From NCBI GenBank assembly GCA_003522145.1, contig DPGD01000024.1, positions 14,646-78,645 on the forward strand: a DNA stretch of 64,000 nucleotides. The letters are read 5' to 3'. This DNA is from Clostridiales bacterium. GTDB lineage: Bacteria; Bacillota; Clostridia; Oscillospirales; CAG-272. The notes beneath the pieces were generated by a model that had not been told where the DNA came from, ran no database searches, and saw only the letters and a list, made by a program, of their open reading frames with translations. Positions 2,756 through 18,129 of this stretch are shown here, in pieces (the first letter of the stretch is position 1; each line of letters opens with the position of its first letter). Made by a program: the position numbers and the translations under genes.

Positions 2756-5191
2756 ATGAAAACTTTCTTTTTGCTCTCCGTCGTAGCGCTTTTGCCCGTG
2801 ATTTTGTCCGCGCTGATATACCTTGCGGAACGGACAAAAGCCATCCGCAAGCTTCCCTATGCCGTCAGGCAGCTCCTGATCGGAGTTCTGTTCGGCGGGC
2901 TTGCGATTCTCGGAACGGAATTTGGGATCAAAACCGACGGCGCCATCATCAACGCAAGAGACGCCTCGCCGATCTGCGCGGGACTTCTTTTCGGCGCGCC
3001 GGCAGGAATCATAGCGGGACTGATCGGCGGCGTGGAGCGGTGGTTCGCAGTTCTTTGGGGAGCCGGGCAATATACCCGTCTCGCCTGCAGCATTTCCACC
3101 GTGCTTGCGGGCGTTTTCGCGGCTGTCCTGCGGAAATTCATGTTTGATAACAAAAAGCCGAAATGGTATTACTGTCTTGCGACGGCAACCATTACGGAGG
3201 TCATCCATATGCTGATGATATTCCTTACGAACATGACCGACGCAAGAACCGCGTTTTCGTTTGTGCGAACCTGCTCGCTTCCCATGATTGCGGTCAACAG
3301 TCTTGCCGTGATGCTTGCGGGGCTTCTGCTTTCGATTCTTTCCGGAGCGGATCGTAAAAGCGAAAGGCGCGACCTGAAAAAAATTTCACAGTCGTTTCAG
3401 CGGTTTCTCCTGATCTGCGTTACGGCGGGCTTTCTCATGACAACGATTTTCACATGGGCGTTGCAGACGGAGCTTGCCAAAAACGAGGCAAACAACCTGG
3501 TAAAGCTGAACATCGAAGATGTAAAAGCGGATATTCTTGACGCTTCCAACCACAACCTCCTGTCCCTCACGGCCAAAATCGCCGAACGCATCCATACGGC
3601 GGACAAGGTGGATTACGCGCTGCTTTGCGCCCTCGGAAACGAATACGATGTAGCCGAAATCAACATCATCAATCCGCAAGGCATCATCGTGGAAACCACC
3701 TACGAAAAGTTTCGGAATTACGACATGCGCGGAGGCCATCAATCGGCGGAGTTTCTTGTCCTGCTTGACGGGGAAACCAAGGAATATGTTCAAAACTATC
3801 AGCCTACCTCGTCCAATCCGGCCATTTCCCGCAAATATGCGGGCATCGTGCTGGACGGCGGCGGCTTTGTGCAGGTGGCTTATGACGCGGAGCGCTTCCA
3901 AAAAGACATTGATGACATTGTCATCGGAGTCACGCGCAACCGCCACATCGGAGAAAACGGCAGTATAATCATCGCCGGCGAGGATTGGAACATCGTCAGC
4001 GACAGACACGGAAACGAAGGCAAAAACCTCGATGTTTCCGGCATTTACATAGACCGCCCTACCATGCCCGAGGACAAGTATTTTGACGCCGTTGTTTACG
4101 GCGAGAAATCGCTTTGCCGATATATCGTTTCCGAAGGCTACTACATCGTGGCCGCCATGCCTTACACGGAGGCGGTGTTCTCGCGCGACGTGTCGGTGTA
4201 TGTGACGGTGTTTATGGAATTTGTTGTTTTCGGAATGTTGTTCATCGTCGTTTATTTTCTCATCAAGAAGCTGGTCGTGGACAACATGGTGAAGATCAAC
4301 CAATCGCTGGCAAAGATCACCAGCGGCAACCTTGACACCGTCGTAAATGTAAGAACCAACGAAGAATTTGCTTCCCTTTCCGACGATATAAACTCAACCG
4401 TTCTGACGCTGAAGCGCTATATTGCGGAAGCGGCGGCGCGCATCGACAAAGAATTGGAATTTGCCAAGGCCATTCAACATTCCGCCATTCCGATGGTTTT
4501 CCCGCCGTATCCCGGCCACAGCGAATTTGACATATACGCAACCATGGACACCGCCAAAGAAGTGGGCGGCGACTTTTACGATTTCTATTTTGTCGGCGAA
4601 AACAAGCTCGGATTTCTTATCGCCGATGTTTCCGGCAAAGGGATTCCCGCCGCCATGTTTATGATGACGGCCAAAACCATCATAAAAGGCTATGCCGAGG
4701 CCGGCAGGGACGTAGACGAGGTCTTTACCGTCGCCAATGCCAAGCTGTGCGAATCCAACGAAGCCGGAATGTTTGTCACCGCATGGATGGGCATGCTGGA
4801 TATAACCACCGGAAGGGTTGAATTTGCCAACGCAGGCCACAACCCGCCGCTCGTAAGACATGCAGACGGAAGCTTTGAATTTCTGAAATCCAAGCCGGGC
4901 TTCATTCTTGCCGGAATGGAGGGGATGAAGTATCGCAAAAACGAGCTTGTCCTTTCGGCCGGCGACGAGATCTATCTCTATACCGACGGAGTTACGGAGG
5001 CGACAAACGCGAAAAACGAGCTTTACGGCGAAAAACGGCTGGTAAAGCTGCTGGATTCCCTGCACGGACTGACAAGCGAAGGAATTTGTCGTGCCGTCAA
5101 GGCAGACATAGACGCTTTTGTGGGAGACGCCCCGCAATTCGATGATATTACCATGCTGTATCTGAAATATAACGGAGGCTCTGAAAAATGA
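2756..5191 (+). CDS. Membrane sensor PP2C phosphatase (5TMR-LYT N-terminus, extracytoplasmic Cache-like domain, HAMP, SpoIIE/RsbU-type PP2C)
   Basis: 811 aa. The N-terminal multi-TM region contains the INARDASP/LytS-like motif, followed by a roughly 240-aa extracytoplasmic segment between TM helices. HAMP-like: INQSLAKITSGNLDTVVNVRTNEEFASLSDDIN. PP2C motifs: GGDFYDF, ADVSGKGIPAAMFM, YTDGVTEA, DDITMLY. Confidence 0.9.
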   Translation: MKTFFLLSVVALLPVILSALIYLAERTKAIRKLPYAVRQLLIGVLFGGLAILGTEFGIKTDGAIINARDASPICAGLLFGAPAGIIAGLIGGVERWFAVLWGAGQYTRLACSISTVLAGVFAAVLRKFMFDNKKPKWYYCLATATITEVIHMLMIFLTNMTDARTAFSFVRTCSLPMIAVNSLAVMLAGLLLSILSGADRKSERRDLKKISQSFQRFLLICVTAGFLMTTIFTWALQTELAKNEANNLVKLNIEDVKADILDASNHNLLSLTAKIAERIHTADKVDYALLCALGNEYDVAEINIINPQGIIVETTYEKFRNYDMRGGHQSAEFLVLLDGETKEYVQNYQPTSSNPAISRKYAGIVLDGGGFVQVAYDAERFQKDIDDIVIGVTRNRHIGENGSIIIAGEDWNIVSDRHGNEGKNLDVSGIYIDRPTMPEDKYFDAVVYGEKSLCRYIVSEGYYIVAAMPYTEAVFSRDVSVYVTVFMEFVVFGMLFIVVYFLIKKLVVDNMVKINQSLAKITSGNLDTVVNVRTNEEFASLSDDINSTVLTLKRYIAEAAARIDKELEFAKAIQHSAIPMVFPPYPGHSEFDIYATMDTAKEVGGDFYDFYFVGENKLGFLIADVSGKGIPAAMFMMTAKTIIKGYAEAGRDVDEVFTVANAKLCESNEAGMFVTAWMGMLDITTGRVEFANAGHNPPLVRHADGSFEFLKSKPGFILAGMEGMKYRKNELVLSAGDEIYLYTDGVTEATNAKNELYGEKRLVKLLDSLHGLTSEGICRAVKADIDAFVGDAPQFDDITMLYLKYNGGSEK

Positions 5192-5595
5192 AGGAATTGA
5201 CAATCCCCGCAACCGTTGAAAACATAGAAAAGGTAACCGAATTTGTAAACCGTCAGCTTCAGGAGATCCACTGCCCGAGCAAGGCGCAGATGCAGATTGA
5301 TATAGCGATTGACGAGCTTTTCGGCAACATCGCGCATTACGCATACAGGCCCGAAACAGGCCCCGCCACGGTGCGCGTGGAGGTAACGGAAGCGCCGATC
5401 TCCGTCATTGTCACCTTTATTGATCATGGGGTTCCCTACGATCCTCTGAAAAAGGACGATCCCGACATTACCCTGTCCGCAGACGAACGCGCCATTGGCG
5501 GGCTTGGCATTTTCATGGTCAAGAAAACCATGGACGAAATCACATACGAATATAAGGACGGTCAGAACATCCTTCGCATCCGAAAGGATCTTTGA
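5188..5595 (+). CDS. RsbW/SpoIIAB-like anti-sigma serine kinase (HATPase_c)
   Basis: 135 aa. The start overlaps the phosphatase stop (ATGA). N-box-like DELFGNIAHYAY, G-box-like GGLGIFMVKKTMDE. Confidence 0.85.
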   Translation: MKELTIPATVENIEKVTEFVNRQLQEIHCPSKAQMQIDIAIDELFGNIAHYAYRPETGPATVRVEVTEAPISVIVTFIDHGVPYDPLKKDDPDITLSADERAIGGLGIFMVKKTMDEITYEYKDGQNILRIRKDL

Positions 5596-5638
5596 AGCCG
5601 TTTGGAGCCGATTGAAATTTTATAAACGAGGTAAAGGT

Positions 5639-6115
5639 ATGAGCCAACCGATATTCCGCCAAAAAAGTATGGAAAAAATCTCTTCCCCGGAGCAGATGAA
5701 CGATTACATCCGCGTGTCAAACCCAAGTGTATGGATGATCCTTGCCGCCGTTATCGTACTGCTGGCAGGCGTATGCGTGTGGGGAATGTTCGGATGTCTT
5801 GACACCTCCTTTCAAACGGGCGGCGTCTGCCGGGACGGCTGTCTGACCGTTTATGTCAAGGAAGCCGACTTTGCCAAAATCAAAGGAAAAGCCATTCTTT
5901 CGGTTGACGGCTCGGAGCTTTCGCTGTCCGATCTGCCAGGCTCTCCCGTTCGGCTCGATGACAGTGCCGATCCGTATCTTCTTCATCTCATAGGCGCTTC
6001 GGCGGGCGATTGGGTATATGTTCTGACAGTCGATGCCAAAGACATGAAAAGCGGCACGTTCTCCGTTTCGGTCATTACCGAGCGCGTCAAGCCGCTCGAC
6101 TTTGTGCTGAACTGA
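5639..6115 (+). CDS. Short HlyD-like NHLM/NHLP-type bacteriocin secretion protein (158 aa)
   Basis: ATG at 5639 follows GAGGTAAAGGT. The N-terminal FRQKSMEKISSPEQMNDYIRVSNPSVWMIL + TM helix is the signature opening of HlyD-type adaptors of NHLM bacteriocin exporters (TIGR03794-like, from memory). The protein is far shorter than canonical adaptors. Confidence 0.6.
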   Translation: MSQPIFRQKSMEKISSPEQMNDYIRVSNPSVWMILAAVIVLLAGVCVWGMFGCLDTSFQTGGVCRDGCLTVYVKEADFAKIKGKAILSVDGSELSLSDLPGSPVRLDDSADPYLLHLIGASAGDWVYVLTVDAKDMKSGTFSVSVITERVKPLDFVLN

Positions 6116-6124
6116 GGTGCGGAC

Positions 6125-8305
6125 ATGAAGGCAACCAAAAAAATCAAAGCGCCCCTGACAAAGGGCGTGGCCAAAGTGCCCGTGATCATGCAGATGGAAG
6201 CGCTGGAATGCGGCGCCGCAAGCCTTGCCATGATCCTTGCCTATTATGAAAAATGGATCCCGCTGGAGCAGGTGCGTCTTGACTGCGGCGTTTCGCGCGA
6301 CGGCTCCAACGCAAGAAATCTTCTCCGGGCCGCCCGAAGCTACGGCCTTGCGGCCAAGGGCTATCGCTATGAACCCGAAACCCTGAAAAAAGAGGGGAAA
6401 TTCCCCTGCATTATCCATTGGAATTTCAATCATTTTGTGGTTCTTGACGGCTTCAAGGGCAACAAAGCGGTGTTAAACGATCCCGCAAAGGGCACCTATA
6501 CTGTCCCTATGAGCGTTTTTGACGACTCGTTTACAGGGGTATGCCTGTTTTTTGAGCCGGACGAAGGCTTTGTGCCGGAGGGCAAGCCGCAGTCCATGCT
6601 GAAATATGCGCAAAAACGGCTTGTCGGCGCAAGCACCGCCATTGTATTCGTCGTTCTGACCTCTATGATCACATCCCTGCTCGGCATGATCACGCCGGCG
6701 TTTTCGCGCATCTTTCTTGACCGACTGCTGACAAAAGAAAACCCGGAATGGCTCACGCCGTTTACGATTGCACTTGTGGGAATAAGCGTCATTCAGCTTA
6801 TCGTTGCATGGATCCAGGCCATCTATTCTCTCCGCATCAACGGAAAGCTCGCCATGGTGGGAAACACAACCTTTATGTGGAAAATCCTGCGCATGCCCAT
6901 GGAATTTTTTTCTCAGCGCATGGCAGGCGATCTTCAGGGCAGACAAGCGTCGAACGCCATGATAGCGGAGCGGCTGGTCAACATGTTTGCGCCGCTCGCG
7001 CTCAACGCCGCTATGATGGTGTTTTATCTCGTGGTCATGCTCCGATACAGCGTCGTACTGACGATGATAGGGCTTTTTTCGGTGATTGCCAACCTGGCCC
7101 TTTCGGGAATTATTTCAAGAAAGCGCATCAATATCACCCGCGTGCAAATGCGCGACGCCGGCAAGCTGGCGGGAACCACGGTCGCCGGCATAGAAATGAT
7201 TGAAACCATCAAGGCCAGCGGCGCCGAAAACGGCTTTTTTGAAAAATGGGCCGGCTATCAGGCAAGCGTCAATACAAATCAGGTTCGGTATCAGCGCACC
7301 AATCTGCTTCTTGAGCTACTGCCGGCTCTGATAAGCGCCCTTTGCGGAACGGCCGTGCTGATGACAGGCGTTTTCCTGGCGATGGAAGGTCTGTTTACCG
7401 TCGGTATGATCATGGCGTTTCAGGGCTTTCTTTCGTCGTTCGTTTCCCCCGCAATGTCGCTGATTTCCGCGGGGCAATCGCTCCAGGAAATGCGCACCGA
7501 TATGGAACGGATTGAGGATGTTATGAAATATCCCGCCGACGTGACCTTTGCCGAGCACGAGGAGGAGGCTGTCGAATACGACAAGCTGGCCGGAAACATC
7601 GAAATCAAAAATATAACCTTCGGGTATTCCCGCCTGGCGGAGCCTTTGATTCAGGATTTCAGCATGACCTTGACGCCGGGAAGCCGCATTGCTTTTGTCG
7701 GGCCGTCCGGGTGCGGAAAGTCCACCCTCTCAAAGCTCATATCCGGACTTTACAAGCCTTGGAGCGGCGAAATCCTGTTTGACGGCAAGCCTTTGTCGGA
7801 AATTGATCGCAGCGTGTTTACAGGCTCCCTTGCCGTGGTGGATCAGGATATTATCCTGTTTGAAGATACGATTGCCAACAACATTAAAATGTGGGATAAC
7901 TCCATTGAAGACTTTGAAATGATCATGGCGGCGCGCGACGCGCAGCTTCACGAGGATATTATGCAGCGCGAAGGCGGCTATCAGTACCGGCTGACCGAGG
8001 GCGGAAAGGATTTTTCCGGCGGGCAGAGACAGCGCATGGAGATTGCGCGCGTGCTCGCGCAGGATCCCACGATCATCCTTCTTGACGAGGCGACAAGTGC
8101 GCTGGACGCCAAAACCGAATACGACGTGGTGAAATCCATCAAAGACAGGGGCATCACCTGTATTGTGGTGGCGCACAGACTTTCCACCATACGCGATTGT
8201 GACGAGATTATTGTAATGGATCAGGGAAAAGTCATTGAGCGCGGAACACACGAGGAGCTGATGAAACAAGGCGGAGCTTATACTCAGCTCGTATCAAACG
8301 AGTAA
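6125..8305 (+). CDS. Bacteriocin ABC exporter with N-terminal C39 peptidase domain (NHLM ABC1-type)
   Basis: 726 aa. C39 motif QMEALECGAASLAMILAYY (catalytic Cys about aa 29) and HWNFNHFVVL; six-TM permease region; Walker A GPSGCGKST, signature FSGGQRQR, Walker B ILLDEATSALD. Confidence 0.92.
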   Translation: MKATKKIKAPLTKGVAKVPVIMQMEALECGAASLAMILAYYEKWIPLEQVRLDCGVSRDGSNARNLLRAARSYGLAAKGYRYEPETLKKEGKFPCIIHWNFNHFVVLDGFKGNKAVLNDPAKGTYTVPMSVFDDSFTGVCLFFEPDEGFVPEGKPQSMLKYAQKRLVGASTAIVFVVLTSMITSLLGMITPAFSRIFLDRLLTKENPEWLTPFTIALVGISVIQLIVAWIQAIYSLRINGKLAMVGNTTFMWKILRMPMEFFSQRMAGDLQGRQASNAMIAERLVNMFAPLALNAAMMVFYLVVMLRYSVVLTMIGLFSVIANLALSGIISRKRINITRVQMRDAGKLAGTTVAGIEMIETIKASGAENGFFEKWAGYQASVNTNQVRYQRTNLLLELLPALISALCGTAVLMTGVFLAMEGLFTVGMIMAFQGFLSSFVSPAMSLISAGQSLQEMRTDMERIEDVMKYPADVTFAEHEEEAVEYDKLAGNIEIKNITFGYSRLAEPLIQDFSMTLTPGSRIAFVGPSGCGKSTLSKLISGLYKPWSGEILFDGKPLSEIDRSVFTGSLAVVDQDIILFEDTIANNIKMWDNSIEDFEMIMAARDAQLHEDIMQREGGYQYRLTEGGKDFSGGQRQRMEIARVLAQDPTIILLDEATSALDAKTEYDVVKSIKDRGITCIVVAHRLSTIRDCDEIIVMDQGKVIERGTHEELMKQGGAYTQLVSNE

Positions 8306-8319
8306 GGGGGCGGATCGAT

Positions 8320-10521
8320 ATGGGTTGGTTTGACGAACAAATCAGAGATCGCAAGCATAACGACGACGAGGCTTTTGCCGAAGCCTTTGCCAATATGGCC
8401 TCTGCCATCACCGGCAAAAAAATCGAAGCCTCCTTAAACAACGACCGCGCTGTTACCAAAGACGCCATCGACGAAATTCTGAAATATTATCATGTAAAGA
8501 GCCGCGAGGTGCCGGACGAAATCGGCGACATAAACGAACAGCTTGAATATCTCATGCGCCCTTTCGGCATTATGCGACGCCCGATCCGGCTGGAGGACGG
8601 CTGGTATCGTGACGCAATCGGCGCCATGCTCGGCGTGCTGCGCGAAAGCGGAAGGGTGGTGGCGCTGATTCCCACAGGGCTTTCCGGGTACAGCTATTTT
8701 GATTACGAAGTCGGCAAACGAAGAAAAATCAATCGCAAAAATCAGCACCTGTTTGAAATGGAAGCCATTGCGTTTTACAAGCCCTTTCCGCTGAAAAAAA
8801 TCAGCCTGCCGTCGCTGGCCGCATATATCATGCGGACGCTTTCGGCCTCCGATTTTGTGATGATCGCCCTGGCCACGCTTGCTCTATCGCTGATCGGCAT
8901 GATTTCCCCGATGATCAGCAAGCTCCTGTTTGCTCGTGTGCTTCCGTCGGGAAGCATGCGCCTGCTTATCGCCATTACGGTCTTCTCCGTGTCCGTTTCG
9001 ATCAGCACGCTTCTCTTTTCCGCCGTGAAAAAGCTGATCATGGCCCGGATCGAAACCAAGCTGAACATATCGGTTGACGCAGCCGCCATGATGCGCGTCC
9101 TGTCGCTCCCGGCCGATTTCTTCAAGTCGTACAGCGCAGGCGAGCTTTCAAACCGTGTGTCTCAGGTCGGTGTGCTTTGCAAAATGCTGGCGTCCACCGT
9201 CCTGTCTACGGGACTGACTTCCCTTTTCTCGCTCCTATACCTATCGCAGATATTTGTCTACGCGCCGGCTCTTGTCGCTCCCGCGCTGATAATTATTCTT
9301 GTAACCGTTGTATTTTCCATCCTGTCGTCGCTCATTCAGATGAAAATAAGCATACGTCAGATGGAGCTTTCCGGCAAAGAAGACGGTATGACCTATGCTC
9401 TCATTTCGGGCATACAAAAGATTAAGCTGGCCGGCGCCGAAAAACGCGCCTTTGCAAGATGGGGCAATCTTTATGCCGAAAGCGCAAGGCTTACCTACAA
9501 TCCGCCGATGTTTATCAAGCTCAACACCGTCATCAGCCTTGCCATAAGCCTTGCGGGAACGATCATCATGTACGTCATGGCGGTAAAATCGGGCATTTCC
9601 GTGGCCGATTATTACGCCTTCGGCACGGCATACGGCATGGTGTCCGGCGCATTTACGGCGCTGGCCGGAATCGCGCTCACCGTGGCGCAGATAAAGCCCA
9701 TCCTCCATATGGTAAAACCGTTTTTTGATACCGCACCTGAAGTTTCAGACGGAAAACAGGTGATCACAAGGCTGTCCGGCGGAATTGAACTGAGCAATGT
9801 TTCGTTCCGATACAGCGAAAACATGCCCCTGGTGGTAGACGATATGTCGCTTAAAATACGTCCCGGACAATATGTTGCCATCGTCGGGAAAACGGGCTGC
9901 GGAAAGTCAACGCTTATGCGTCTGCTGCTCGGCTTTGAGCATCCGCAAAAAGGCGCCATCTATTATGACGGGAGAGATCTGGAACGAATTGACCTCCGCT
10001 CTCTGCGGCGTCGGATCGGTTCCGTTATGCAAAACGGGAAGCTGTTCCAGGGCGATATTTATTCCAATATCGTCATTTCCGCACCGTGGCTGTCCCCAAA
10101 CGAAGCATGGGAAGCGGCGGAGCTTGCGGGAATTGCCGAGGATATAAGAAAAATGCCCATGGGGATGAGCACGATCATCTCCGAAGGCTCGGGCGGCATC
10201 TCCGGCGGACAGCGCCAGCGGCTGATGATTGCTCGCGCCATCGCGCCAAAGCCCAGAATCCTTATGTTTGACGAGGCGACAAGCGCGCTGGACAATCTCA
10301 CGCAGAAAAAGATCTCCGAAGCGCTCGACTCATTGAAATGCACCAGAATCGTAATTGCGCACCGGCTTTCGACCATCAAGCAGTGCGACAGGATCCTCGT
10401 GCTGGATCACGGAAAGATCATCGAAGACGGCAAATATGACGAGCTGATTGCAAAGAACGGCTTCTTTGCGGAGCTTGTCGCTCGGCAGAGGCTTGACGGC
10501 GCTCCCAAAGCCGATTTCTAA
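8320..10521 (+). CDS. Second bacteriocin ABC exporter permease/ATPase without peptidase domain (NHLM ABC2-type)
   Basis: 733 aa. It has a non-peptidase N-terminal domain of about 150 aa, a TM region, Walker A GKTGCGKST, signature ISGGQRQR, and Walker B LMFDEATSALD. Confidence 0.9.
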   Translation: MGWFDEQIRDRKHNDDEAFAEAFANMASAITGKKIEASLNNDRAVTKDAIDEILKYYHVKSREVPDEIGDINEQLEYLMRPFGIMRRPIRLEDGWYRDAIGAMLGVLRESGRVVALIPTGLSGYSYFDYEVGKRRKINRKNQHLFEMEAIAFYKPFPLKKISLPSLAAYIMRTLSASDFVMIALATLALSLIGMISPMISKLLFARVLPSGSMRLLIAITVFSVSVSISTLLFSAVKKLIMARIETKLNISVDAAAMMRVLSLPADFFKSYSAGELSNRVSQVGVLCKMLASTVLSTGLTSLFSLLYLSQIFVYAPALVAPALIIILVTVVFSILSSLIQMKISIRQMELSGKEDGMTYALISGIQKIKLAGAEKRAFARWGNLYAESARLTYNPPMFIKLNTVISLAISLAGTIIMYVMAVKSGISVADYYAFGTAYGMVSGAFTALAGIALTVAQIKPILHMVKPFFDTAPEVSDGKQVITRLSGGIELSNVSFRYSENMPLVVDDMSLKIRPGQYVAIVGKTGCGKSTLMRLLLGFEHPQKGAIYYDGRDLERIDLRSLRRRIGSVMQNGKLFQGDIYSNIVISAPWLSPNEAWEAAELAGIAEDIRKMPMGMSTIISEGSGGISGGQRQRLMIARAIAPKPRILMFDEATSALDNLTQKKISEALDSLKCTRIVIAHRLSTIKQCDRILVLDHGKIIEDGKYDELIAKNGFFAELVARQRLDGAPKADF

Positions 10522-10606: not shown

Positions 10607-10843
10607 GTGATAGGCATAAGAGCAGGGCAACAAGACAGATTGCCCGAAATCAGCGAAAAAACGCTTTCGGCGCTGTTTGATTATCAATTGTTTGAAAACG
10701 AGCCTTCGCTCCGAAAACTCATAGATGAAGTGGAAAACGAATACGGTGCCGAAATTTCAGAGGATGACCTCTCGCTTGTCAGTGCGGCGGGCGAAACGGA
10801 ATCTTCCGAAAAGCGCAAAGGCAAAATGGACGGTACTCTATGA
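10607..10843 (+). CDS. Small acidic protein of unknown function, translationally coupled to the sigma factor
   Basis: GTG at 10607 lies 7 nt after AGGAGGA (10594-10600). The 78-aa ORF's stop overlaps the sigma gene ATG (ATGA at 10840-10843). The segment YGAEISEDDLSLVSAAG resembles the Nif11/double-glycine leader end of the downstream precursors. Confidence 0.45.
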   Translation: MIGIRAGQQDRLPEISEKTLSALFDYQLFENEPSLRKLIDEVENEYGAEISEDDLSLVSAAGETESSEKRKGKMDGTL

Positions 10844-11325
10844 GCCTTGCAACGGAAAAGGAAGCGCTGTATACGGAATACCACGACAAGGTAAGCCATT
10901 ATGTTTTCTGCAGACTGCAAAACAAAAGCGACGCAGAAGACATTGTCAGCGAAATCTTCCTGAAAGTTTACGAACATTTCGATACATTTGACGCAAGTCT
11001 TGCTTCCGTTTCCACATGGATTTATACGATCACACGGAACACCGTAACGGATTATTTCAGGTCAAACCGCATCTATGCGGAATTGCCGGAGGAGTTATCG
11101 GACGGAGACGACATCGATTGCGTTGTTTTACAAAAAGAATCTCTTGCGGCGCTCGGAAAAGCGCTCGGCAAGCTTGACGAGCGCCGCTGCGCCCTTGTGA
11201 TTTTAAAGTATTACAAGAAAATGTCTCTGAAAGATATAGCGGCAAGAATGGGCATATCGTATGCCTATGTAAAAATTCTGCACAAAAGTGCGCTGAACAA
11301 ACTTAAAAATGATCTGAGCGGTTGA
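10840..11325 (+). CDS. Sigma-70 family (ECF-like, two-domain) RNA polymerase sigma factor
   Basis: 161 aa. Region 2: DAEDIVSEIFLKVYEHFDTFD...STWIYTITRNTVTDYFR. Region 4 HTH: MSLKDIAARMGISYAYVKILHKSALNKLK. Confidence 0.9.
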   Translation: MSLATEKEALYTEYHDKVSHYVFCRLQNKSDAEDIVSEIFLKVYEHFDTFDASLASVSTWIYTITRNTVTDYFRSNRIYAELPEELSDGDDIDCVVLQKESLAALGKALGKLDERRCALVILKYYKKMSLKDIAARMGISYAYVKILHKSALNKLKNDLSG

Positions 11326-11894: not shown

Positions 11895-12311
11895 ATGAAC
11901 ACCGAACTTATCGCCAAGGCAAAGGAAGCGAAATCCCCCGAAGAACTGATGGCTCTTGCAAAAGAAAACGGCATGGAACTGACCGAAGAAGCAGCAAGTA
12001 CATATTTTAATCAGCTCAACCCAAAAATGGGCGAGCTTGCAGATGACGAGCTTGACAATGTTGCCGGCGGCGGCTGCTACTCAAGCGGCGGACGTCTAAA
12101 AACTACCTGCGGATATAAATGCAAGCATTATCAAGACGGGCCTTCAACTTATGGTGTAAAAGGCACCTGCTGCAGATGCAGATACTGGGGCGTCGATCCT
12201 AACGCTATAAGCGCTTCTCTTTGGACAACGGTTTTAGAGTTGATCGTAAAAGCGGCTGAGGCGGCTGAACCTCGTGAGTGCTACCATCCCGCCAACAGTA
12301 AAAAGGGCTGA
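11895..12311 (+). CDS. Precursor peptide P3: Nif11-type leader + ~78-aa core (7 Cys)
   Basis: Leader MNTELIAKAKEAKSPEELMALAKENGMELTEEAASTYFNQLNPKMGELADDELDNVAGGG, followed by CYSSGGRLKTTCGYKCKHYQDGPSTYGVKGTCCRCRYWG... Confidence 0.85.
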   Translation: MNTELIAKAKEAKSPEELMALAKENGMELTEEAASTYFNQLNPKMGELADDELDNVAGGGCYSSGGRLKTTCGYKCKHYQDGPSTYGVKGTCCRCRYWGVDPNAISASLWTTVLELIVKAAEAAEPRECYHPANSKKG

Positions 12312-12370
12312 TTGGTACAAAAATTTGCACATTTAATTAAACAAATAAAAAACATCAAAGGAGCATCGCA

Positions 12371-12610
12371 ATGAAAATGAACAATGAACTTATCGCAAAA
12401 GCAAAACAGGCAAAAAACCCCGAAGAGCTTCTGGCTCTTGCAAAAGAAAACGGCGTTGAACTGACGGAAGAAAGCGCAAAGGCGTATTTCAATCAGCTCA
12501 ATCCCAAAACAGGCGAGCTTGCCGACGACGAGCTTGACAATGTCGCCGGCGGCGGCTGCCAGCAGAACAACGGTCATCTTGATAAATACAAGGATTTCAA
12601 CAACATTTGA
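12371..12610 (+). CDS. Precursor peptide P4: Nif11-type leader + very short core (1 Cys)
   Basis: The leader is near-identical to P3/P5. The core after GG(G) is only CQQNNGHLDKYKDFNNI. Confidence 0.7.
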   Translation: MKMNNELIAKAKQAKNPEELLALAKENGVELTEESAKAYFNQLNPKTGELADDELDNVAGGGCQQNNGHLDKYKDFNNI

Positions 12611-12661
12611 TTTTTTCCCGCACAACAAACATCTGAAAAATTTATTATGATAGGAGTTTTT

Positions 12662-13045
12662 ATGAAAAAGGATCTTTTAGTGAAAGCAAAACAAGCAAAA
12701 ACCCCTGAAGAATTGATGTCCTTCGCAAAGGAAAACAACATTGAACTGACCGAAGAGAGCGCAAAGGCGTACTTTGAACAGCTCAACCCCAAAACGGGCG
12801 AGCTTGCAGATGACGAGCTTGACAATGTTGCCGGCGGCGGATGCCATAACGGCGGCAGGCTTGTCGTTTCCGTAATGCATTACTGCGATGAATGGCGTTG
12901 CAAGGATGACGGCTCCCAATGCGATATAGACGGCGTACTGGTAAACTGCAACACCTGCAAGGTCGCCGCATACTGCTTTTCGTGCAAGTACTGTACCTAC
13001 GAAAAAGGGCTCTGGCTCTGCAATAACCCCGTTAACATGAAATAA
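12662..13045 (+). CDS. Precursor peptide P5: Nif11-type leader + ~68-aa core (10 Cys), paralogue of P8
   Basis: ATG 12662 after TAGGAG. Core GCHNGGRLVVSVMHYCDEWRCKDDGSQCDIDGVLVNCNTCKVAAYCFSCKYCTYEKGLWLCNNPVNMK. Confidence 0.85.
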   Translation: MKKDLLVKAKQAKTPEELMSFAKENNIELTEESAKAYFEQLNPKTGELADDELDNVAGGGCHNGGRLVVSVMHYCDEWRCKDDGSQCDIDGVLVNCNTCKVAAYCFSCKYCTYEKGLWLCNNPVNMK

Positions 13046-13071
13046 ACCTACTCAAACAAGGAGATTTTACC

Positions 13072-13485
13072 ATGGACAATAAATTTACACCCGAACTTAT
13101 TGAAAAAGCCAAAGAAGCGAAAACCCCCGAAGAATTGTTCGCTCTTGCAAAAGAAAACGGCGTTGAACTGACCGAAGAGAGCGCAGCGTCGTATTTTGAC
13201 CGGCTGAACCCCAAAACAGGTGAGCTTTCCGACAGTGAGCTTGATAATGTATCCGGCGGCGGTTGCCTCAGTGATGACCCCTACGATACTTGTATGGCGG
13301 ACGGCTACTGTTTGTCCGACTATGTATGCAGCCGTTGCGGCACAAGGGGTATTGACCATAGCACCGGCGTGTTGCGTTGTTCCGGATGTTTTGCAAGCGA
13401 CCCCCGCTGTCGGAACTGTAGGAACAGTATTGGGGATAAGAGCGATTCGGTATTAAAATGCAAGGTTCATCCGAGACCCTGCTAA
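13072..13485 (+). CDS. Precursor peptide P6: Nif11-type leader + ~75-aa core (11 Cys)
   Basis: The core GCLSDDPYDTCMADGYCLSDYVCSRCGTRGIDHSTGVLRCSGCFASDPRCRNCRNSIGDKSDSVLKCKVHPRPC contains CxxCG-x12-CxxC. Confidence 0.85.
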   Translation: MDNKFTPELIEKAKEAKTPEELFALAKENGVELTEESAASYFDRLNPKTGELSDSELDNVSGGGCLSDDPYDTCMADGYCLSDYVCSRCGTRGIDHSTGVLRCSGCFASDPRCRNCRNSIGDKSDSVLKCKVHPRPC

Positions 13486-13519
13486 AGAATATTTTAAATT
13501 GTACAGAGAGGATTCAAAG

Positions 13520-13915
13520 ATGGAAATGAACAAAGAATTGCTTGCAAAAGCAAAAGAAATGAAAACTCCCGAAGAACTCATGGCTCTCGCAAAAGAAAGC
13601 GGCATTGAAATGACAAAAGAAAAAGCGGATGAGTATTTTAAGCAGCTTAGCACAAGCTCCGGCGAGATATCCGATGAGGAACTCGATAATGTTTCCGGCG
13701 GCTGTGGCGGCGGATATGTTGCCGGCAGACCCCATCCTCAATTCGGCGTTGGTGAATCCGTTCTTTATATTTGCGGCTGGTTGGGAGGAGACAGGATAAC
13801 CGCGTCCGCCAAGGTCGTGAAGAGAAGCTATGAAAACGACGCATGGTATTATACCCTGAAAATACATGACGGAAGTGAAATAACGCTAAGCGAGTCGTAT
13901 GTAATAAAGAGCTGA
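13520..13915 (+). CDS. Precursor peptide P7: Nif11-type leader + ~70-aa Cys-poor, beta-rich core (2 Cys)
   Basis: ATG 13520 was chosen by alignment with P4 (MEMNKELLAKAK vs MKMNNELIAKAK). Core CGGGYVAGRPHPQFGVGESVLYICGWLGGDRITASAKVVKRSYENDAWYYTLKIHDGSEITLSESYVIKS. Confidence 0.75.
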   Translation: MEMNKELLAKAKEMKTPEELMALAKESGIEMTKEKADEYFKQLSTSSGEISDEELDNVSGGCGGGYVAGRPHPQFGVGESVLYICGWLGGDRITASAKVVKRSYENDAWYYTLKIHDGSEITLSESYVIKS

Positions 13916-13961
13916 GAACAAGACAGCTTTTACAAAATAAATTTGAGGCAAGGAGATTTTT

Positions 13962-14351
13962 ATGCAAAACAATCAAGAGCTTTTCGCAAAAGCAAAGGAA
14001 GCAAAAACCCCCGAGGAGCTGTTGTCTCTCGCGAAAGAAAACGGCATTGAAATGACCGATGAGAGCGCAAACGCATATTTTGAAATCATACATCCGAAAG
14101 CCGGCGAGCTTGCAGACGACGAGCTTGACAATGTATCCGGCGGCGGATGTCGCAAGAGTGACGGAAGACTTGTAGTTTCCGCCGGCTATTCATGCGGATA
14201 TTGGGAATGCAACAAATGCGGAGTGAAATGGAAAAATGCCGGTTACGGTACTTTTAAGTGCAGTAGGTGCGGAAAATCATCACATTGCAATAACTGCTAC
14301 TGGTGCTCATATGAAAAAGGGCTTTGGCTTTGCAATAACAAGGACAAATGA
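13962..14351 (+). CDS. Precursor peptide P8: Nif11-type leader + ~67-aa core (10 Cys), paralogue of P5
   Basis: Core GCRKSDGRLVVSAGYSCGYWECNKCGVKWKNAGYGTFKCSRCGKSSHCNNCYWCSYEKGLWLCNNKDK. It shares GRLVVS and C-x2-C-x5-C-x2-C-x2-C-x9-C / YEKGLWLCNN with P5. Confidence 0.85.
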   Translation: MQNNQELFAKAKEAKTPEELLSLAKENGIEMTDESANAYFEIIHPKAGELADDELDNVSGGGCRKSDGRLVVSAGYSCGYWECNKCGVKWKNAGYGTFKCSRCGKSSHCNNCYWCSYEKGLWLCNNKDK

Positions 14352-14365
14352 ACTGATTCGGGTAT

Positions 14366-15751
14366 ATGCGTTATATTTTGAACCCCAATGTCGCCCTGCG
14401 TTCATGGCAGCTCGTCCCCTACGCCTATTACATAAAGGGTGAACGCAATGCGGCAGGACTGAAAAAAGAAGAATTTGAATTTCTGTCGGCGTGTGACGGA
14501 AAAACCGACCTGCCGACAGAAAACGAAAGCACTCTCGCACACGAACTCATTGAAAAAGGCTTTATCCATAAAGCGGCGAGCGGAGAAAACCTCTCCGATT
14601 GGAGCAAACCCCGCATTTTTGAAAACCGTTATTTTCCCGCCATGAATCTGATGATAACGGGCAAATGCAATTATAATTGTATTCATTGCTTCAATGCCGC
14701 GGACAATGCCCCGCTGATGAGCGAATGGACTATGGATGAAATGAATACGCTTCTCGATCAGGCGCGCGATTGCGGAATCAATGCGTTCACAATCACCGGC
14801 GGCGAGCCTATGCTGCACAAAAATTTCTTTGAAATTATTGAAGGCATCTATTCGCGCGGAATGTTCGTCGAAGAACTGAACACCAACGGCCATTTCATAA
14901 ACAAGCAAGCGCTTGCGTGCCTGAAAAGCATCGGCTGCGTCCCGCTCGTGAAAATATCCTTTGACGGCATCGGTTATCACGATTGGATGCGGAATCATAA
15001 GGGTGCCGAGCAAATTGCGCTGGATGCGATTTCTCACTGTATTGAAAACGGGTTTCCCGTCAAAGTGCAGACCAACATGAACCGCCAAAACTGCGACATA
15101 ATGCTGGAAACGGCCAAAAAGCTGGACGCGATGGGCGTAAGCGAAACGCGGATGATCCGCACGACCGAAGCTCCGCGTTGGGTACAGAATGCCGGCGACG
15201 CCTGCCTTACGTTTGAAGAATATTTTGATAAAGCGATCTGCCTCTGGCAGAAATACGCGGCGGAAGCTCATGATATGAATCTGACCGTATGGCAAGTGGG
15301 AACGCTTTATCCAAAATCAAAATTTTATACCCTTGCCGCCGTCAATTCCTGCACAGGCCAATATCGCCCAAGCGCCCCCGTGTGCAAAGGCAACCGCGGC
15401 ATGGTTGCGGTGGCGGCCAACGGAAATCTTTACCCCTGCCATCAAATGTCCGGCTATTACGAGCAGCACGGATATTTTCTCGGCAACATCAAACAAACTC
15501 CGCTGAAAGAGTTACTTTCGGGCGGAAAATACCTTGACGAAGTCTGCACCACGCTCGGAACACTGAAAGAAAGCAACCGCAAGTGCGGCAATTGTTCCTA
15601 TTTTGAACGCTGTAACGGCGGTTGTCGCGCTATAGCGTTGGCACTTACAGGCGACAGGCTCGGAATCGATCCCTCCAAGTGCCTTTTCTGGGAAAACGGC
15701 TACGCCGAAAAAATTGCGGCGGCTCTGCCGGATTACGAAACAAATATTTAA
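14366..15751 (+). CDS. Radical SAM/SPASM-domain peptide maturase
   Basis: 461 aa. CX3CX2C = CNYNCIHC (aa 101-108). SPASM-type auxiliary cluster motifs: CKGNRGMVAVAANGNLYPC (C-x12-G-x4-C) and CGNCSYFERCNGGC (CX2CX5CX3C). The ~95-aa N-terminal extension before the SAM cluster could be a leader-recognition (RRE/PqqD-like) domain. Confidence 0.92.
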   Translation: MRYILNPNVALRSWQLVPYAYYIKGERNAAGLKKEEFEFLSACDGKTDLPTENESTLAHELIEKGFIHKAASGENLSDWSKPRIFENRYFPAMNLMITGKCNYNCIHCFNAADNAPLMSEWTMDEMNTLLDQARDCGINAFTITGGEPMLHKNFFEIIEGIYSRGMFVEELNTNGHFINKQALACLKSIGCVPLVKISFDGIGYHDWMRNHKGAEQIALDAISHCIENGFPVKVQTNMNRQNCDIMLETAKKLDAMGVSETRMIRTTEAPRWVQNAGDACLTFEEYFDKAICLWQKYAAEAHDMNLTVWQVGTLYPKSKFYTLAAVNSCTGQYRPSAPVCKGNRGMVAVAANGNLYPCHQMSGYYEQHGYFLGNIKQTPLKELLSGGKYLDEVCTTLGTLKESNRKCGNCSYFERCNGGCRAIALALTGDRLGIDPSKCLFWENGYAEKIAAALPDYETNI

Positions 15752-16054: not shown

Positions 16055-16106
16055 CAAGCGATATCTGTCTATCTGAAAGGATAAACTGATATCGCTTGCT
16101 TTTTTA
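16055..16106 (+). terminator. Rho-independent-type terminator closing the RiPP operon
   Basis: 11-bp stem CAAGCGATATC / GATATCGCTTG (22-nt loop) followed by CTTTTTT. Confidence 0.55.
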
Positions 16107-16654: not shown

Positions 16655-17050
16655 TTAGATGCAGTGCGAAGAAACACTTCTCTCTTGGTGAAACAAGGGC
16701 TTGCAAGTGACCGCTATCTTCCGGGCTTGCAGAGCCATGCTTGTAAACGAGCTTATGTATGCCGTTTCGGTTTCAAAACCGATGTATTGTCTGCCGGTGA
16801 TGGTGAAATCCGCACCGAGCAGACTGCGGATGATTCTGTTCTTGTCACGCAGATAGTTACCTTTGCTGTAAAGAGACACACGTGCCTCCTGCACATCATA
16901 GGAAAGAGCATCGTCTGCATTGAGGGCAAAGCGGTCGGACATAGGCACCGCCACGATATAGGTATCCGGGGCGGTGTCGGTAAACACACCCGTTTCAAGC
17001 GGAATGCCGAGGGGTGTGAGAGTTTGTTTGATGTCTGCAAGGATATTCAT
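16655..17050 (-). CDS. Phage head-tail joining/tail-completion-like protein (family uncertain)
   Basis: 131 aa, 4-nt overlap with the upstream phage gene. Its position after the gp10-like gene is typical of HK97/SPP1-like head-tail modules. The C-terminal ~30 aa look atypical, so it may be junction-derived. Confidence 0.45.
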   Translation of the reverse strand: MNILADIKQTLTPLGIPLETGVFTDTAPDTYIVAVPMSDRFALNADDALSYDVQEARVSLYSKGNYLRDKNRIIRSLLGADFTITGRQYIGFETETAYISSFTSMALQARKIAVTCKPLFHQERSVSSHCI

Positions 17051-17478
17051 AGCTTATCGATCTCCTCGTCAAGTTTTTGCACCATTGCCGAGATACAGGC
17101 AGATTTTGTGCTTGTTTTTGCGGGTTTCAAAAAAGGCTTTGCAGGCTGACCATGCTTGCCGTATTCGAGAATATTTGCAAGCATTGCATTGCTTTTCCCA
17201 TCGGTGCGGTTTTCTGCAAAGCCGATCTTGACATTAAAGTCACCGTTTCTGTCTTGCAAAGCCCCGGAAGTACCGAGAGCAGACAAAAGCTACCCGGTGC
17301 TTCGGCTTTCCTCCTTGAGTTCTTTGCCGATAACTGCGGTAAGGTTGGAGCGAACTTTGTCTTCCACGATTTCCGCACCCGCTTCAAGCACTCTCGGCAA
17401 GATTTCATCGGTTTTTGCACCAAGGCGGGAGACCTTCAAAAGAAACTCCTCCGGCATTTTAATCGTTGCCTTTGCCAC
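17047..17478 (-). pseudogene. HK97 gp10-family phage protein split by an in-frame TAG
   Basis: ORFs 17290-17478 (MAKATIKMPEEFLLKVSRLGAKTDEILPRVLEAGAEIVEDKVRSNL...) and 17047-17286 (...DRNGDFNVKIGFAENRTDGKSNAMLANILEYGKHGQPAKPFLKPA) are in the same frame. They are separated only by the stop at 17290-17292. Confidence 0.7.
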
Positions 17479-17812
17479 TTGCCGTCACCTCCTTACAAAG
17501 CACTTCGATATACATTCCGCGACCTTTCACATTTTCGACCGAGGTGATTTCAAGCCGCTGTCCTGCATCAATAATAAGCATTTTGGTGGTAATCTCCACC
17601 GAAGGGGTGGCACGGAAGCGGAAAAGGTCGGTAGCCGTTGTAAAGGCGGCTCTGCTTGCCCATTTTTTGCTTCCGTGCCGTCCTTCTCGATAGGCGCGTA
17701 CTCTTGCCACCTCTTTATCCATTTGGACAGAAAAGCCCTCGTTGTCCTTCTCGGTGGTAGGCAGTACGATTTGAAGGAAGTGGTCTTGCCGTCCAAGGCT
17801 CATACCGACCAC
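17459..17812 (-). CDS. Phage head-tail adaptor / head-closure protein
   Basis: 117 aa. The pattern RQDHFLQIVLPTTEKDNEGFSVQ...VARVRAYRE...RFRATPSVEITTKMLIIDAGQRLEITSVENVKGRGMYIEV is typical of the SPP1 gp16/HK97 gp9 adaptor family. Confidence 0.7.
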   Translation of the reverse strand: MVGMSLGRQDHFLQIVLPTTEKDNEGFSVQMDKEVARVRAYREGRHGSKKWASRAAFTTATDLFRFRATPSVEITTKMLIIDAGQRLEITSVENVKGRGMYIEVLCKEVTASGKGND

Positions 17813-18120: not shown

Positions 18121-18129
18121 CTCCCGTCA

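Follow-up and report, generated by a model that had tools for sequence, protein, structure and literature searches.

Gene organization of the locus

The window, the whole stretch of 64,000 nt (64 kb) that we have analyzed, contains a cluster in which a canonical NHLP/Nif11 export system is combined with an uncurated radical-SAM/SPASM enzyme. All features described below are on the forward (+) strand. The first is a membrane sensor phosphatase with 5TM-LytS and SpoIIE/PP2C domains (2756..5191; Pfam PF07694, 2.7e-30, and PF07228, 9.1e-51). Many related loci have a homologue 5' of the cluster, and the gene is probably part of a regulatory module which travels with the cluster. It is followed by an ORF for a 135 aa RsbW-like anti-sigma serine kinase (5188..5595), whose orthologue in a related locus (L001) carries the PF13581 domain, HATPase_c_2. 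Beyond the export genes we find an ECF-type sigma-70 factor (10840..11325; Pfam Sigma70_r2 and r4; TIGR02937, 1.9e-27). Its start is overlapped by a 78 aa ORF (10607..10843), a candidate anti-sigma or partner protein which matches nothing in Pfam or NCBIfam; a 78 aa gene is found at the same position before the sigma gene in loci L001, L009, and L011.

The export genes begin with a short membrane protein (5636..6115), an HlyD-like stub akin to the N-terminus of the NHLP bacteriocin secretion protein. It matches only positions 1–51 of the TIGR03794 profile, with a score below the cut-off (1.3e-8, 34 bits), and has no Pfam match. Its start is probably at an internal Met, since the orthologue in L001 has 158 aa. 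In most loci this stub is directly 5' of the ABC genes. These are a peptidase-C39 exporter, NHLM ABC1 (6125..8305; TIGR03796, 939.7 bits, cut-off 853.3; Peptidase_C39, 2.4e-34), which is expected to cut the leader after GG and to export the core, and NHLM ABC2, the second ABC permease/ATPase subunit (8320..10521; TIGR03797, 736.7 bits, cut-off 709.4).

The remaining genes code for precursor peptides, P1 to P9, and for the radical-SAM/SPASM enzyme, which has 461 aa and is the presumed maturase (14366..15751; PF04055, 2.9e-15; PF13186, 3.7e-7). Three precursors, as read from their sequence, have a short double-glycine leader of about 25 aa, compared with about 60 aa in the Nif11-type precursors. 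They are P1 (11359..11544), with a CxxC...CxxC core kept in close relatives, P2 (11569..11841), with an Asn-rich repetitive core and a match below the cut-off to the NF038167 CTB-family bacteriocin (1.3e-4), and P9 (15774..15980), which lies downstream of the radical-SAM gene, has a CPxCG...CPYC core and is conserved in closer relatives only. The operon ends at a terminator-like hairpin (16056..16106) that can be read directly from the DNA, with a 10-bp stem (AAGCGATATC/GATATCGCTT) followed by a T run. A consensus scan for promoters and terminators in the operon gave counts no higher than in shuffled sequence; this hairpin was missed by the scan because of its long loop.

P5, P8 and related precursors

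P5 (12662..13045) and P8 (13962..14351) are confirmed as two paralogues of a single uncharacterized family of Cys-rich precursors with a Nif11-type leader. The P5 leader (12662–12838) has 59 aa and ends in ELDNVAGG, and the P8 leader (13962–14144) has 61 aa and ends in ELDNVSGG; the same GG motif is found in all related loci. An alternative start for P5 is possible at an upstream ATG (12647). P8 exceeds the cut-off of the Nif11-type leader model TIGR03798 (33.8 bits, cut-off 32.3). P5 is below this cut-off (27.4 bits, E=3e-6); its alignment runs to the end of the profile, and its leader is 70–80% identical to the other leaders. The cores, GCHNGGRLVVSVMHYCDEWRCKDDGSQCDIDGVLVNCNTCKVAAYCFSCKYCTYEKGLWLCNNPVNMK in P5 (12839–13042) and GCRKSDGRLVVSAGYSCGYWECNKCGVKWKNAGYGTFKCSRCGKSSHCNNCYWCSYEKGLWLCNNKDK in P8 (14145–14348), have 68 aa counted after GG and 67 aa after GGG, which agrees with the length of about 67 aa given in the sequence-only reading. 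They are 43% identical (BLASTP, E=1e-14). A family HMM finds exactly two places in the window, P5 (105 bits) and P8 (89 bits).

Most of what had been noticed in these two cores holds. Both contain an identical GRLVVS, and an identical YEKGLWLCNN at the C-terminal Cys array. The last spacing of this array had been miscounted as C-x9-C: The array is C-x2-C-x5-C-x2-C-x2-C-x8-C, as (T/S)YEKGLWL counts eight residues. The middle sections are indeed unlike, with CKDDGSQC in P5 (the CKDDG subtype) and CNKCG...CSRCG in P8 (the CxxCG, zinc-ribbon-like subtype).

Four other precursors of the operon have Nif11 leaders. In P3 (11895..12311; TIGR03798, 7.7e-7) a GGRL motif, GCYSSGGRLKTTC, had been taken as a hint of a recognition element shared with P5 and P8. 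The motif is present, and the similarity goes beyond it: P3-type cores are homologous to the family over the whole scaffold (hhalign 95.9%, E=5.6e-9), with an N-terminal GCxxxGGRLxTT..C and a C-terminal C-x-H-P-x-N-x-K in common with P5 and P8. P6 (13072..13485; TIGR03798, 2.4e-7) has a 12-Cys core in which the Cys scaffold (C17...C62) is kept, whereas GRLVVS and YEKGLWL are missing (family against the P6 type, hhalign 94.1%, E=1.2e-7). Judging from these profile alignments, P3 and P6 are distant members of the P5/P8 superfamily. P4 (12371..12610; TIGR03798, 36.8 bits, cut-off 32.3) has an 18 aa core, GCQQNNGHLDKYKDFNNI, which corresponds to the N-terminal element of the family alone and has orthologues in related loci. 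This element may act as a recognition element, as had been suggested. P7 (13520..13915; TIGR03798, 34.2 bits) carries an unrelated, Cys-poor core of 70 aa, with a weak Tudor-like match (PF09465, E=0.006).

Distribution of the family

The cores form a family of their own. An initial profile search gave 44 proteins, all of them short, and an exhaustive search among 1.84 billion representative proteins gave 76 matches. The core could have been an ordinary domain found outside the context of modified peptides. In fact, it is almost always C-terminal, after a leader of about 60 aa, and found almost solely in short precursors of this kind. The exceptions are a single repeat protein, matched spuriously, and a few gene calls that are wrong or chimeric. 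The only long match is P0076, a repeat protein of 1093 aa, where the matched stretch is a leucine-rich repeat, C(D/A)NLQYNEYENGLYLGN. The other N-extended matches correspond to miscalled starts or to chimeric assemblies joined at the leader, so the core is not a domain of larger proteins.

Scanning species genomes, we detected 68 loci in 68 species-level genomes, nearly all from gut Clostridia, with one to nine paralogues per locus. In human-gut metagenomes the family is frequent, and 460 contigs carry the P8 sequence without any change. Neither Pfam nor NCBIfam has a family matching the P5 and P8 cores. A literature search with the core motif strings gave a single match, an unrelated GRLVVS in a tardigrade paper, and the literature found on Nif11 and radical SAM consists of general reviews and a 2014 survey of anaerobes, with nothing on this family.

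Conservation and evolutionary rate of the cores

We have compared 145 unique complete cores, taken from related loci, with lengths of about 52–90 aa. The proposal of a paralogous scaffold with a variable loop is borne out: The two ends are near-invariant, while the insert between them varies in length, Cys pattern, and rate. The N-terminal constant strand is (G)C-x3-4-G-R-L-V-V-[ST]-x4-C, and the C-terminal constant module, a predicted beta-hairpin, is C-x2-C-x2-[C/M]-[ST]-Y-E-K-G-L-W-L-C-N. YEKGLWLCN is the most conserved block. C2, C17, C47, C50, and C62 are found in about 100% of the cores, and E56, W60, L61, and N63 are kept in at least 97% of them. In the wider family, a number of members replace K57 by G, R, N, D, S, or H and W60 by F or L, while Cys 17, 47, 50, and 62 are retained.

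The insert is hypervariable and usually contains a four-ligand Cys/His motif, similar to a zinc ribbon. A two-knuckle CxxC(G) insert is found in P8 (CNKCG, CSRCG) and in about 60% of the family members. P5-type inserts have Asp at the second ligand position, and there are minimal members with six Cys and without insert. Each core, P5 and P8, has ten Cys as originally counted, and ten is also the commonest number (55 of the 145 cores). On the other hand, a "10-Cys" core is not a defining trait, as the number ranges from 5 to 13. Cys totals are often odd, and some inserts have His in place of Cys (for example CKSCG...KHTHH and CKYCG...HRCSKH). Both features are expected of metal ligands and not of crosslink donors, and the cores may bind metal. 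The same two features argue against an all-disulfide knottin.

A diversifying pattern had also been proposed, to be checked by dN/dS. The insert does evolve faster than the flanks: Pooled dN/dS values are 0.45 (P5 type) and 0.81 (P8 type) in the insert, 0.06–0.19 in the flanks, and 0.12–0.13 in the leader. Nevertheless, dN/dS is never above 1, which points to relaxed or mixed selection in the insert and does not demonstrate positive selection.

Predicted structure

AlphaFold gives compact models with a pLDDT of 90.3 for P5 and 84.8 for P8, with beta strands predicted at GRLVV as well as in the (C)(T/S)YE-KG-LWLC hairpin. The cores are thus predicted to fold confidently without any crosslink. 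A sequence search of the PDB with the family profile gave nothing below E=0.31, and no structural neighbours of the models were found in the PDB.

The P8-type insert, with its CNKCG...CSRCG, resembles zinc ribbons, in which two CxxC knuckles sit on beta-hairpins, and other members swap Cys for His at this place. With few exceptions, the structures that Foldseek matches to the P8 model are zinc-ribbon or zinc-finger modules, the alignments covering about 30 residues at 2–3 A rmsd, but these matches are weak and not significant (E at least 2.5). Zinc-ribbon Pfam models do not match the cores either (best E=8.7), so neither Pfam nor Foldseek relates them significantly to known zinc ribbons. They also differ in that Asp replaces the second Cys in P5-type inserts and in that the minimal members have no insert at all.

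The radical-SAM enzyme

The enzyme has the CX3CX2C motif (CNYNCIHC) and a full SPASM Cys motif (CGNCSYFERCNGGC), together with an additional N-terminal domain of about 90 aa. The N-terminal 91 aa have no Pfam match at E values up to 10, including none to a PqqD-like RRE for leader binding. No NCBIfam family reaches its cut-off, as shown by the bit scores for PapB (71.8, cut-off 340), StsB (88, cut-off 625), and nif11 maturase 3 (70, cut-off 725). Models for SCIFF and other maturases either give no match or stay far below their cut-offs. WgkB (88 bits) and DynA (78.5 bits) give scores of the same order as the thioether synthases; all these scores are far below the family cut-offs and cannot tell one chemistry from another. 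Among solved structures, the sactisynthase SkfB is the closest relative, with a match over the radical-SAM core at no better than 1.5e-12.

Co-occurring enzymes were a suggested check. A radical-SAM orthologue with 45–92% identity adjoins the family in 46 of the 68 loci, usually 15–1600 bp downstream of the last family gene. Among the remaining loci, about 12–14 are contigs which end within about 1.5 kb, and about seven are arrays of family genes with neither a radical-SAM nor an exporter gene within 10 kb. Distant clusters still have the family gene together with the exporter and the radical-SAM gene, while we detect no cores of the P3, P6, or P7 type in them. Starting from radical-SAM homologues, of which there are 1535, we reached three contexts, one of them with six family genes and another with a scaffold-like core.

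Comparison with known systems

Systems that combine a Nif11 leader with a C39 exporter and a radical-SAM enzyme are already known. The Nif11-like leader family and NHLM export go back to Haft, Basu and Mitchell 2010, as cited in PMC4289311. Long Nif11/NHLP leaders are typical of enzyme-modified precursors. Anaerobe clusters with Nif11 leaders, radical-SAM genes, and peptidase-transporters have been described, with their chemistry unsolved (PMC4289311). The cluster agrees with Nif11-like/NHLM systems (TIGR03798, TIGR03796, TIGR03797) in its leader of about 60 aa ending in ELDNV(A/S)GG, in having several precursors with a common leader type and different cores in one operon, and in its C39-peptidase ABC exporter and second ABC subunit, both above the equivalog cut-offs. 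It differs from them in the P5/P8 core family, which is outside NCBIfam and Pfam and whose long cores look like folded proteins, and in the HlyD-like component, cut to a stub of about 158 aa. The best studied Nif11 systems use LanM or cyclodehydratases, whereas an uncurated radical-SAM/SPASM protein is found here.

A Cys-rich core beside an N-extended SPASM radical-SAM enzyme is also found in sactipeptides and ranthipeptides (subtilosin A, thurincin H, ruminococcin C, freyrasin/PapB, SCIFF), and the nearest solved relative of our enzyme is a sactisynthase. The conserved C-x2-C-x2-C spacing of the cores recalls what we take to be the donor spacing of thurincin H, and the C-x3-(D/N/E) at the core N-terminus presumably recalls the PapB motif. 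However, the enzyme reaches no sactisynthase or ranthisynthase cut-off, the cores have about two to three times the length, and their Cys count varies. The precursors also have a Nif11-type leader, presumably processed by the C39 exporter, and a thioether is only putative here. Class II bacteriocins with double-glycine leaders share the GG cleavage site, the dedicated C39 ABC exporter, and the presence of several variant peptides per locus, with a pattern of variation that suggests diversification. Nevertheless, their leaders have 15–25 aa, compared with about 60 aa here, and the core in our case is rich in Cys and comes with a radical-SAM enzyme. We recognized no immunity gene.

Discussion

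We consider it fairly probable that the P5/P8 family consists of Nif11-leader, Cys-rich precursors of gut Clostridia which are modified by the radical-SAM enzyme downstream and exported via NHLM. Expression would be controlled by the ECF sigma factor and the partner-switching genes. The long leader would dock the precursor on the enzyme encoded just downstream, which would then crosslink the conserved scaffold at one or a few places, most likely by Cys thioethers of the sactipeptide or ranthipeptide type. The C39 domain of NHLM ABC1/ABC2 would cut after GG, and the core would be secreted. Outside the cell, the constant scaffold would display the variable insert, and the product may be a strain-specific bacteriocin or a signal. 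Points that weigh against this reading are the scores of the enzyme, far below the cut-offs of all curated maturase families, the lack of a Pfam RRE match in its N-terminal 91 aa, the confident fold predicted for the uncrosslinked cores, and a dN/dS below 1 in the insert.

It is extremely improbable that the similarity is trivial, whether as a chance likeness between sequences rich in Cys or as a zinc-finger domain of the ordinary intracellular kind. Cys-rich profiles can inflate scores, and P0076 was matched in this way, but that match is spurious. The low E value between the two cores, the recurrence of the non-Cys motifs GRLVV and YEKGLWLCN in the 145 unique cores, and the practically constant fusion to a GG leader beside a peptidase-exporter refute this explanation.

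A more serious alternative, still an unlikely one, is that the cores are unmodified or only stabilized by zinc or disulfides. The Nif11 leader would be an export signal, and the radical-SAM enzyme would serve other peptides of the cluster, for example short cores of the P4 kind or the short-leader P9 type. The confident autonomous fold predicted by AlphaFold fits this proposal, as do the CxxCG...CxxC inserts with Cys to His swaps, the often odd Cys totals, and the zinc-ribbon and zinc-finger character of the Foldseek matches, which are not significant. Gene content offers further arguments in its favor. Loci L023, L024, L035, and L037 have arrays without a radical-SAM gene within 10 kb, and in L082 the only precursor detected next to the radical-SAM orthologue (61% identity) has a 14 aa core. 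In L060 a second double-glycine peptide separates the family gene from the radical-SAM gene, and P7 has the same leader on a Cys-poor, protein-like core. On the other hand, the gene directly 5' of the radical-SAM gene is usually a family gene, in several distant clusters a family gene is the only Nif11-leader precursor detected, and the P9 type is restricted to closer relatives. The conserved leader is under purifying selection (dN/dS 0.12), and its length of 60 aa exceeds what export alone requires; P1, P2, and P9 of the same operon are exported with about 25 aa. The radical-SAM enzyme might also modify the family by a different chemistry, such as a C-C or ether crosslink at the conserved aromatic, Lys, or Glu residues of YEKGLW (as in streptide, darobactin, or triceptides) or an epimerization. 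K-G-L-W and Y-E-K both lie in the best conserved block of the core, and we take them to resemble the Lys-Trp and aromatic-x-x motifs of other SPASM enzymes; the similarity to WgkB and DynA is on a par with that to thioether synthases. As noted above, none of these scores tells the chemistries apart. A number of members of the wider family have other residues at K57 and W60, while the four Cys stay. This speaks against a streptide-like Lys-Trp crosslink as the conserved chemistry, and we regard non-thioether modification in general as quite improbable.

Modification of the family by the downstream enzyme, followed by NHLM export, is thus the reading we prefer, and it makes the P5/P8 family a credible lead for a new modified bacteriocin. 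A bolder version appears doubtful at present: The family would open up a new class of modified bacteriocins of about 70 aa, with a novel mini-protein fold stapled by the radical-SAM enzyme into a rigid scaffold, display of a hypervariable, metal-binding loop, and arrays of up to nine paralogues used by gut Clostridia in strain warfare or signalling. Under that version, the scaffold would be a bacterial counterpart of the display scaffolds of the knottin or defensin type.

In summary, the core family lacks a model in Pfam and NCBIfam as well as a relative of solved structure, and the literature that can be searched does not mention it. If the preferred reading is true, P5 and P8 provide a well-defined substrate-enzyme pair for finding what this radical-SAM clade does. 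The scaffold with its variable loop would be usable for peptide engineering, and it could explain narrow-spectrum competition among gut Clostridia.

The Operon and Its Precursor Genes

Between 11.3 and 16.0 kb, the window carries on its + strand nine small open reading frames with double-glycine leaders (P1–P9). Two of them, P5 (12662–13045, +) and P8 (13962–14351, +), have leaders of 59 and 61 aa ending in ELDNV(A/S)GG. Their cores have 68 aa each, counted after the GG, and ten Cys each. GRLVVS and YEKGLWLCNN are common to both cores, which show 43% identity (BLASTP, E = 1e-14), and their alignment needs a single one-residue gap. The family HMM matches the window at P5 and P8 only. The middle sections do differ, as the sequence-only reading had described: CKDDGSQC in P5, CNKCG...CSRCG in P8. 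Its last spacing, C-x9-C, has to be corrected to C-x8-C, since (T/S)YEKGLWL counts eight residues. In four loci (L001–L004, for example 10001–10345 in L001), the P8 orthologue has an in-frame deletion of 15 aa in the leader (46 instead of 61 aa) and an identical core, the deleted stretch seems to be dispensable.

Upstream of the peptides we find, in this order, a 5TM-LytS/SpoIIE phosphatase (2756–5191), an RsbW-like kinase (5188–5595), a short HlyD-like stub (5636–6115), the two subunits of an NHLP/Nif11 bacteriocin exporter, a 78-aa ORF (10607–10843) and the ECF sigma factor gene it overlaps (10840–11325). Both exporter subunits exceed the NCBI equivalog cut-offs: TIGR03796, which contains a C39 peptidase domain, has 939.7 bits (cut-off 853.3) and TIGR03797 has 736.7 (709.4). 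Six of the nine peptides, P3–P8, have Nif11-type leaders (TIGR03798, E 3e-6 to 3.5e-9). A 461 aa radical-SAM/SPASM protein (14366–15751, +) comes directly after P8. P9, a peptide with a short leader, follows, and a terminator-like hairpin closes the operon. P5 and P8 thus belong to a known type: Nif11-leader precursors with an NHLM peptidase-ABC exporter pair and a radical-SAM partner. The literature already records systems of this type from anaerobes, with their chemistry still to be solved (PMC4289311).

The phosphatase, the kinase and the sigma factor with its small overlapping ORF form a regulatory set in the style of partner switching (2756–5595 and 10607–11325), which accompanies the cluster in many loci. 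A STAS protein is also part of it in L060 (4362–4673) and L082 (2584–2880). Directly beyond the terminator there is a prophage fragment (16655–18720, − strand) with genes for a tail terminator, head closure, a head-tail adaptor and a partial major head protein of 196 aa. L001, otherwise syntenic, has Nudix and HTH genes at this place.

Distribution of the Family

A profile of the two cores detected 44 proteins out of 5.8 billion, all of 56–118 aa. An exhaustive HMMER search with 22 cores as query (1.84 billion representatives, E ≤ 1e-3) gave 76 proteins. Nearly all have 80–150 aa and end in the core, which is preceded by a leader of about 60 aa. One match, P0076, is a false positive due to a leucine-rich repeat, the other exceptions are mis-called starts or chimeric assemblies joined at the leader. 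The sequence-only reading had considered that the core motif might be a domain of ordinary proteins. Since nearly all matches are short leader-bearing precursors, and the exceptions are spurious, no such use is found among these 76 proteins. Several database versions of family members (L011 6957–7274; P0018, P0027, P0045 and P0087) lack internal stretches in frame or start with foreign sequence (MreB-like, ABC-ATPase-like), the latter joined exactly where the leader ends. Most likely they arose at the repeated leader sequence, by recombination between paralogues or by chimeric assembly of metagenomes.

A scan with one genome per species gave 68 loci, nearly all of them in gut Clostridia. The hosts include Eubacterium sp. 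CAG:841 (100% identity), UMGS660 (99%), Ruminococcus sp. CAG:382, Candidatus Apopatosoma, and Oscillospiraceae and Lachnospiraceae MAGs. Two loci are in bins labeled Bacteroidaceae and Sphaerochaetaceae (L027 and L030), which could be due to mis-binning or horizontal transfer. The P8 sequence is present in 460 contigs. P5, P8 and the radical-SAM protein are all found, as exact sequences, in public databases; named cluster members appear as "hypothetical protein", and the P8 cluster has one that is annotated as "Nif11-like leader peptide family RiPP precursor". Our literature search for the family motifs found no paper containing them.

Anatomy and Evolution of the Core

We have compared 145 unique complete cores from related loci. 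Positions are columns of the family HMM, from column 7 on they correspond to P5's own core numbering +1. C2, C47, C50 and C62 are invariant (frequency 1.00), followed by C17 (0.97) and C22 (0.94). R8 (0.93), W or F at 20 (0.96), Y55 (0.91), E56 (0.99), K57 (0.87), G58 (0.94), L59 (0.95), W60 (0.98), L61 (0.97) and N63 (0.97) are also conserved. C53 has a frequency of 0.74, with Met in 0.15. Cores contain 5–13 Cys, with a mode of ten (55 of the 145). Minimal members have six (2, 17, 47, 50, 53 and 62) and almost no insert; larger ones gain C22, then one of C25, C29 or C37, then C38 and C41. A CxxCG knuckle, as in P8, is found in about 60% of the cores, and Asp at this place, as in P5, in about 27%. 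Several inserts have His for Cys (CKSCG...KHTHH, CKYCG...HRCSKH), and Cys totals are often odd. Because of these two features, metal ligation would fit the family cores better than an all-disulfide design.

AlphaFold2 models, made with 22–30 family sequences, are confident, with a pLDDT of 90.3 and a pTM of 0.71 for the P5 core (84.8 and 0.67 for P8). Strands are predicted at RLVV, within the insert, and in the (C)(T/S)YE-KG-LWLC hairpin. The structural matches of the P8 model are weak, none of them significant, and nearly all are zinc-ribbon or zinc-finger modules, in qualitative agreement with the zinc-ribbon-like insert of the sequence-only reading.

dN/dS values for the P5 and P8 types, respectively, are 0.12 and 0.13 in the leader, 0.19 and 0.18 in the N-terminal module, 0.45 and 0.81 in the insert (0.54 and 0.90 without Cys codons), and 0.06 and 0.15 in the C-terminal module. 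The proposal of a constant scaffold with a variable loop holds, because of the anatomy of the cores and the contrast between the insert and its flanks. Selection in the loop is relaxed or mixed; with dN/dS below 1, the data do not demonstrate positive selection there.

Related Peptides

Two other peptides of the operon are distant members of a wider superfamily. P3-type cores have in common with the family an N-terminal GCxxxDG(R/Y)LxTT..C, a central CxxCKYW and a C-terminal C-x-(H/N)-P-x-N-x-K (hhalign, 95.9%, E = 5.6e-9). P6-type cores have the Cys scaffold from C17 to C62 in common with it (94.1%, E = 1.2e-7), although Cys-rich profiles can flatter such scores. The 18-aa core of P4 (12371–12610), GCQQNNGHLDKYKDFNNI, is the family's N-terminal element alone. 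Among 255 unique double-glycine cores from related loci (L012–L079), 227 have a Cys at +1 or +2 after the GG, mostly as "GC" and regardless of the remaining core; most of the others have short, non-Nif11 leaders. The GGRL motif noticed in P3 is present. The likeness of P3, P6 and P4, together with these counts, supports, as an observation, a common element near the start of the core.

The remaining peptides are of different kinds. P7 (13520–13915), conserved in many related clusters, has a Nif11 leader and a Cys-poor core of 70 aa with a weak Tudor-like match (PF09465, E = 0.006), therefore quite different, protein-like cargo also uses this leader and exporter. P2 (11569–11841) has a short double-glycine leader and an Asn-rich repetitive core of NNNNFDTSIK units; its match to the CTB-family bacteriocin model is weak and below cut-off. 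Short GG leaders and paired CxxC motifs are found in P1 (11359–11544, MCERCG...LCEKC) and P9 (15774–15980, CPRCG...CPYC). P9, located after the radical-SAM gene, is conserved in closer relatives only. Downstream of some distant clusters (L062, L066 and L071, about 12100–13200) there are several peptides with a different leader, ELDAVAGG, and Gly/Cys-rich cores, for example GNCLCVVGGGGS...CACVVGGGG; they form a further precursor family close to this system.

The Radical-SAM Enzyme and Nature of the System

The enzyme contains CNYNCIHC and a SPASM motif, CX2CX5CX3C, and is extended at the N-terminus by an additional domain of about 90 aa. No curated family matches it at cut-off, the best being NirJ1 (107 bits against 650); among solved structures the sactisynthase SkfB is closest (1.5e-12). 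When the window proteins were compared with the 68 loci by tblastn, an orthologue (45–92% identity) was found in 46, usually starting 15–1600 bp past the last family gene on the same strand; one locus (L075) begins within its 3' end. About 12–14 loci are uninformative, since the contig breaks off at most about 1.5 kb from the last family gene. In about seven (L023, L024, L034, L035, L037, L047 and L048) the family genes have neither enzyme nor exporter within reach; some of the genomes concerned carry the full cluster elsewhere, on a different contig. Distant clusters retain a family gene, the exporter and the enzyme; P3, P6 and P7 types were not detected in them.

The enzyme has 1535 homologues at E ≤ 1e-30. 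Three contexts were sampled starting from them: L080 has six family genes and one P7 type, L083 has one scaffold-like core with five Cys, and in L082, whose radical-SAM orthologue has 61% identity, the only precursor detected (9476–9706) has a Nif11 leader and a 14-aa core, CDLGNEKYYQPFWG. A second double-glycine peptide separates the family gene from the radical-SAM gene in L060. The association between family and enzyme is strong, not exclusive. Putative substrates of this clade evidently include short cores that have nothing but the N-terminal Cys in common with the family; they may go down to the N-terminal Cys region alone, as the cores of P4 and L082 are so short.

Most likely, the leader would guide the radical-SAM/SPASM enzyme, which would crosslink the conserved scaffold; cleavage at the GG and export would follow, and the product would be a diversifying bacteriocin or signal. 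Thioethers would be the default expectation, because the substrate is Cys-rich; another chemistry is rather improbable. In the main alternative, the enzyme would work on the short cores, and P5 and P8 would be mini-proteins that carry no modification, owe their stability to metal or disulfides and use the leader as a means of export. We consider this unlikely, less so than a non-thioether chemistry.

The searched literature and databases hold no description of the core family, the scaffold-plus-loop design, the predicted fold or the enzyme clade. The kind of system is unsurprising; as a lead from genome mining the family is solid and testable, and its hosts are abundant gut bacteria.
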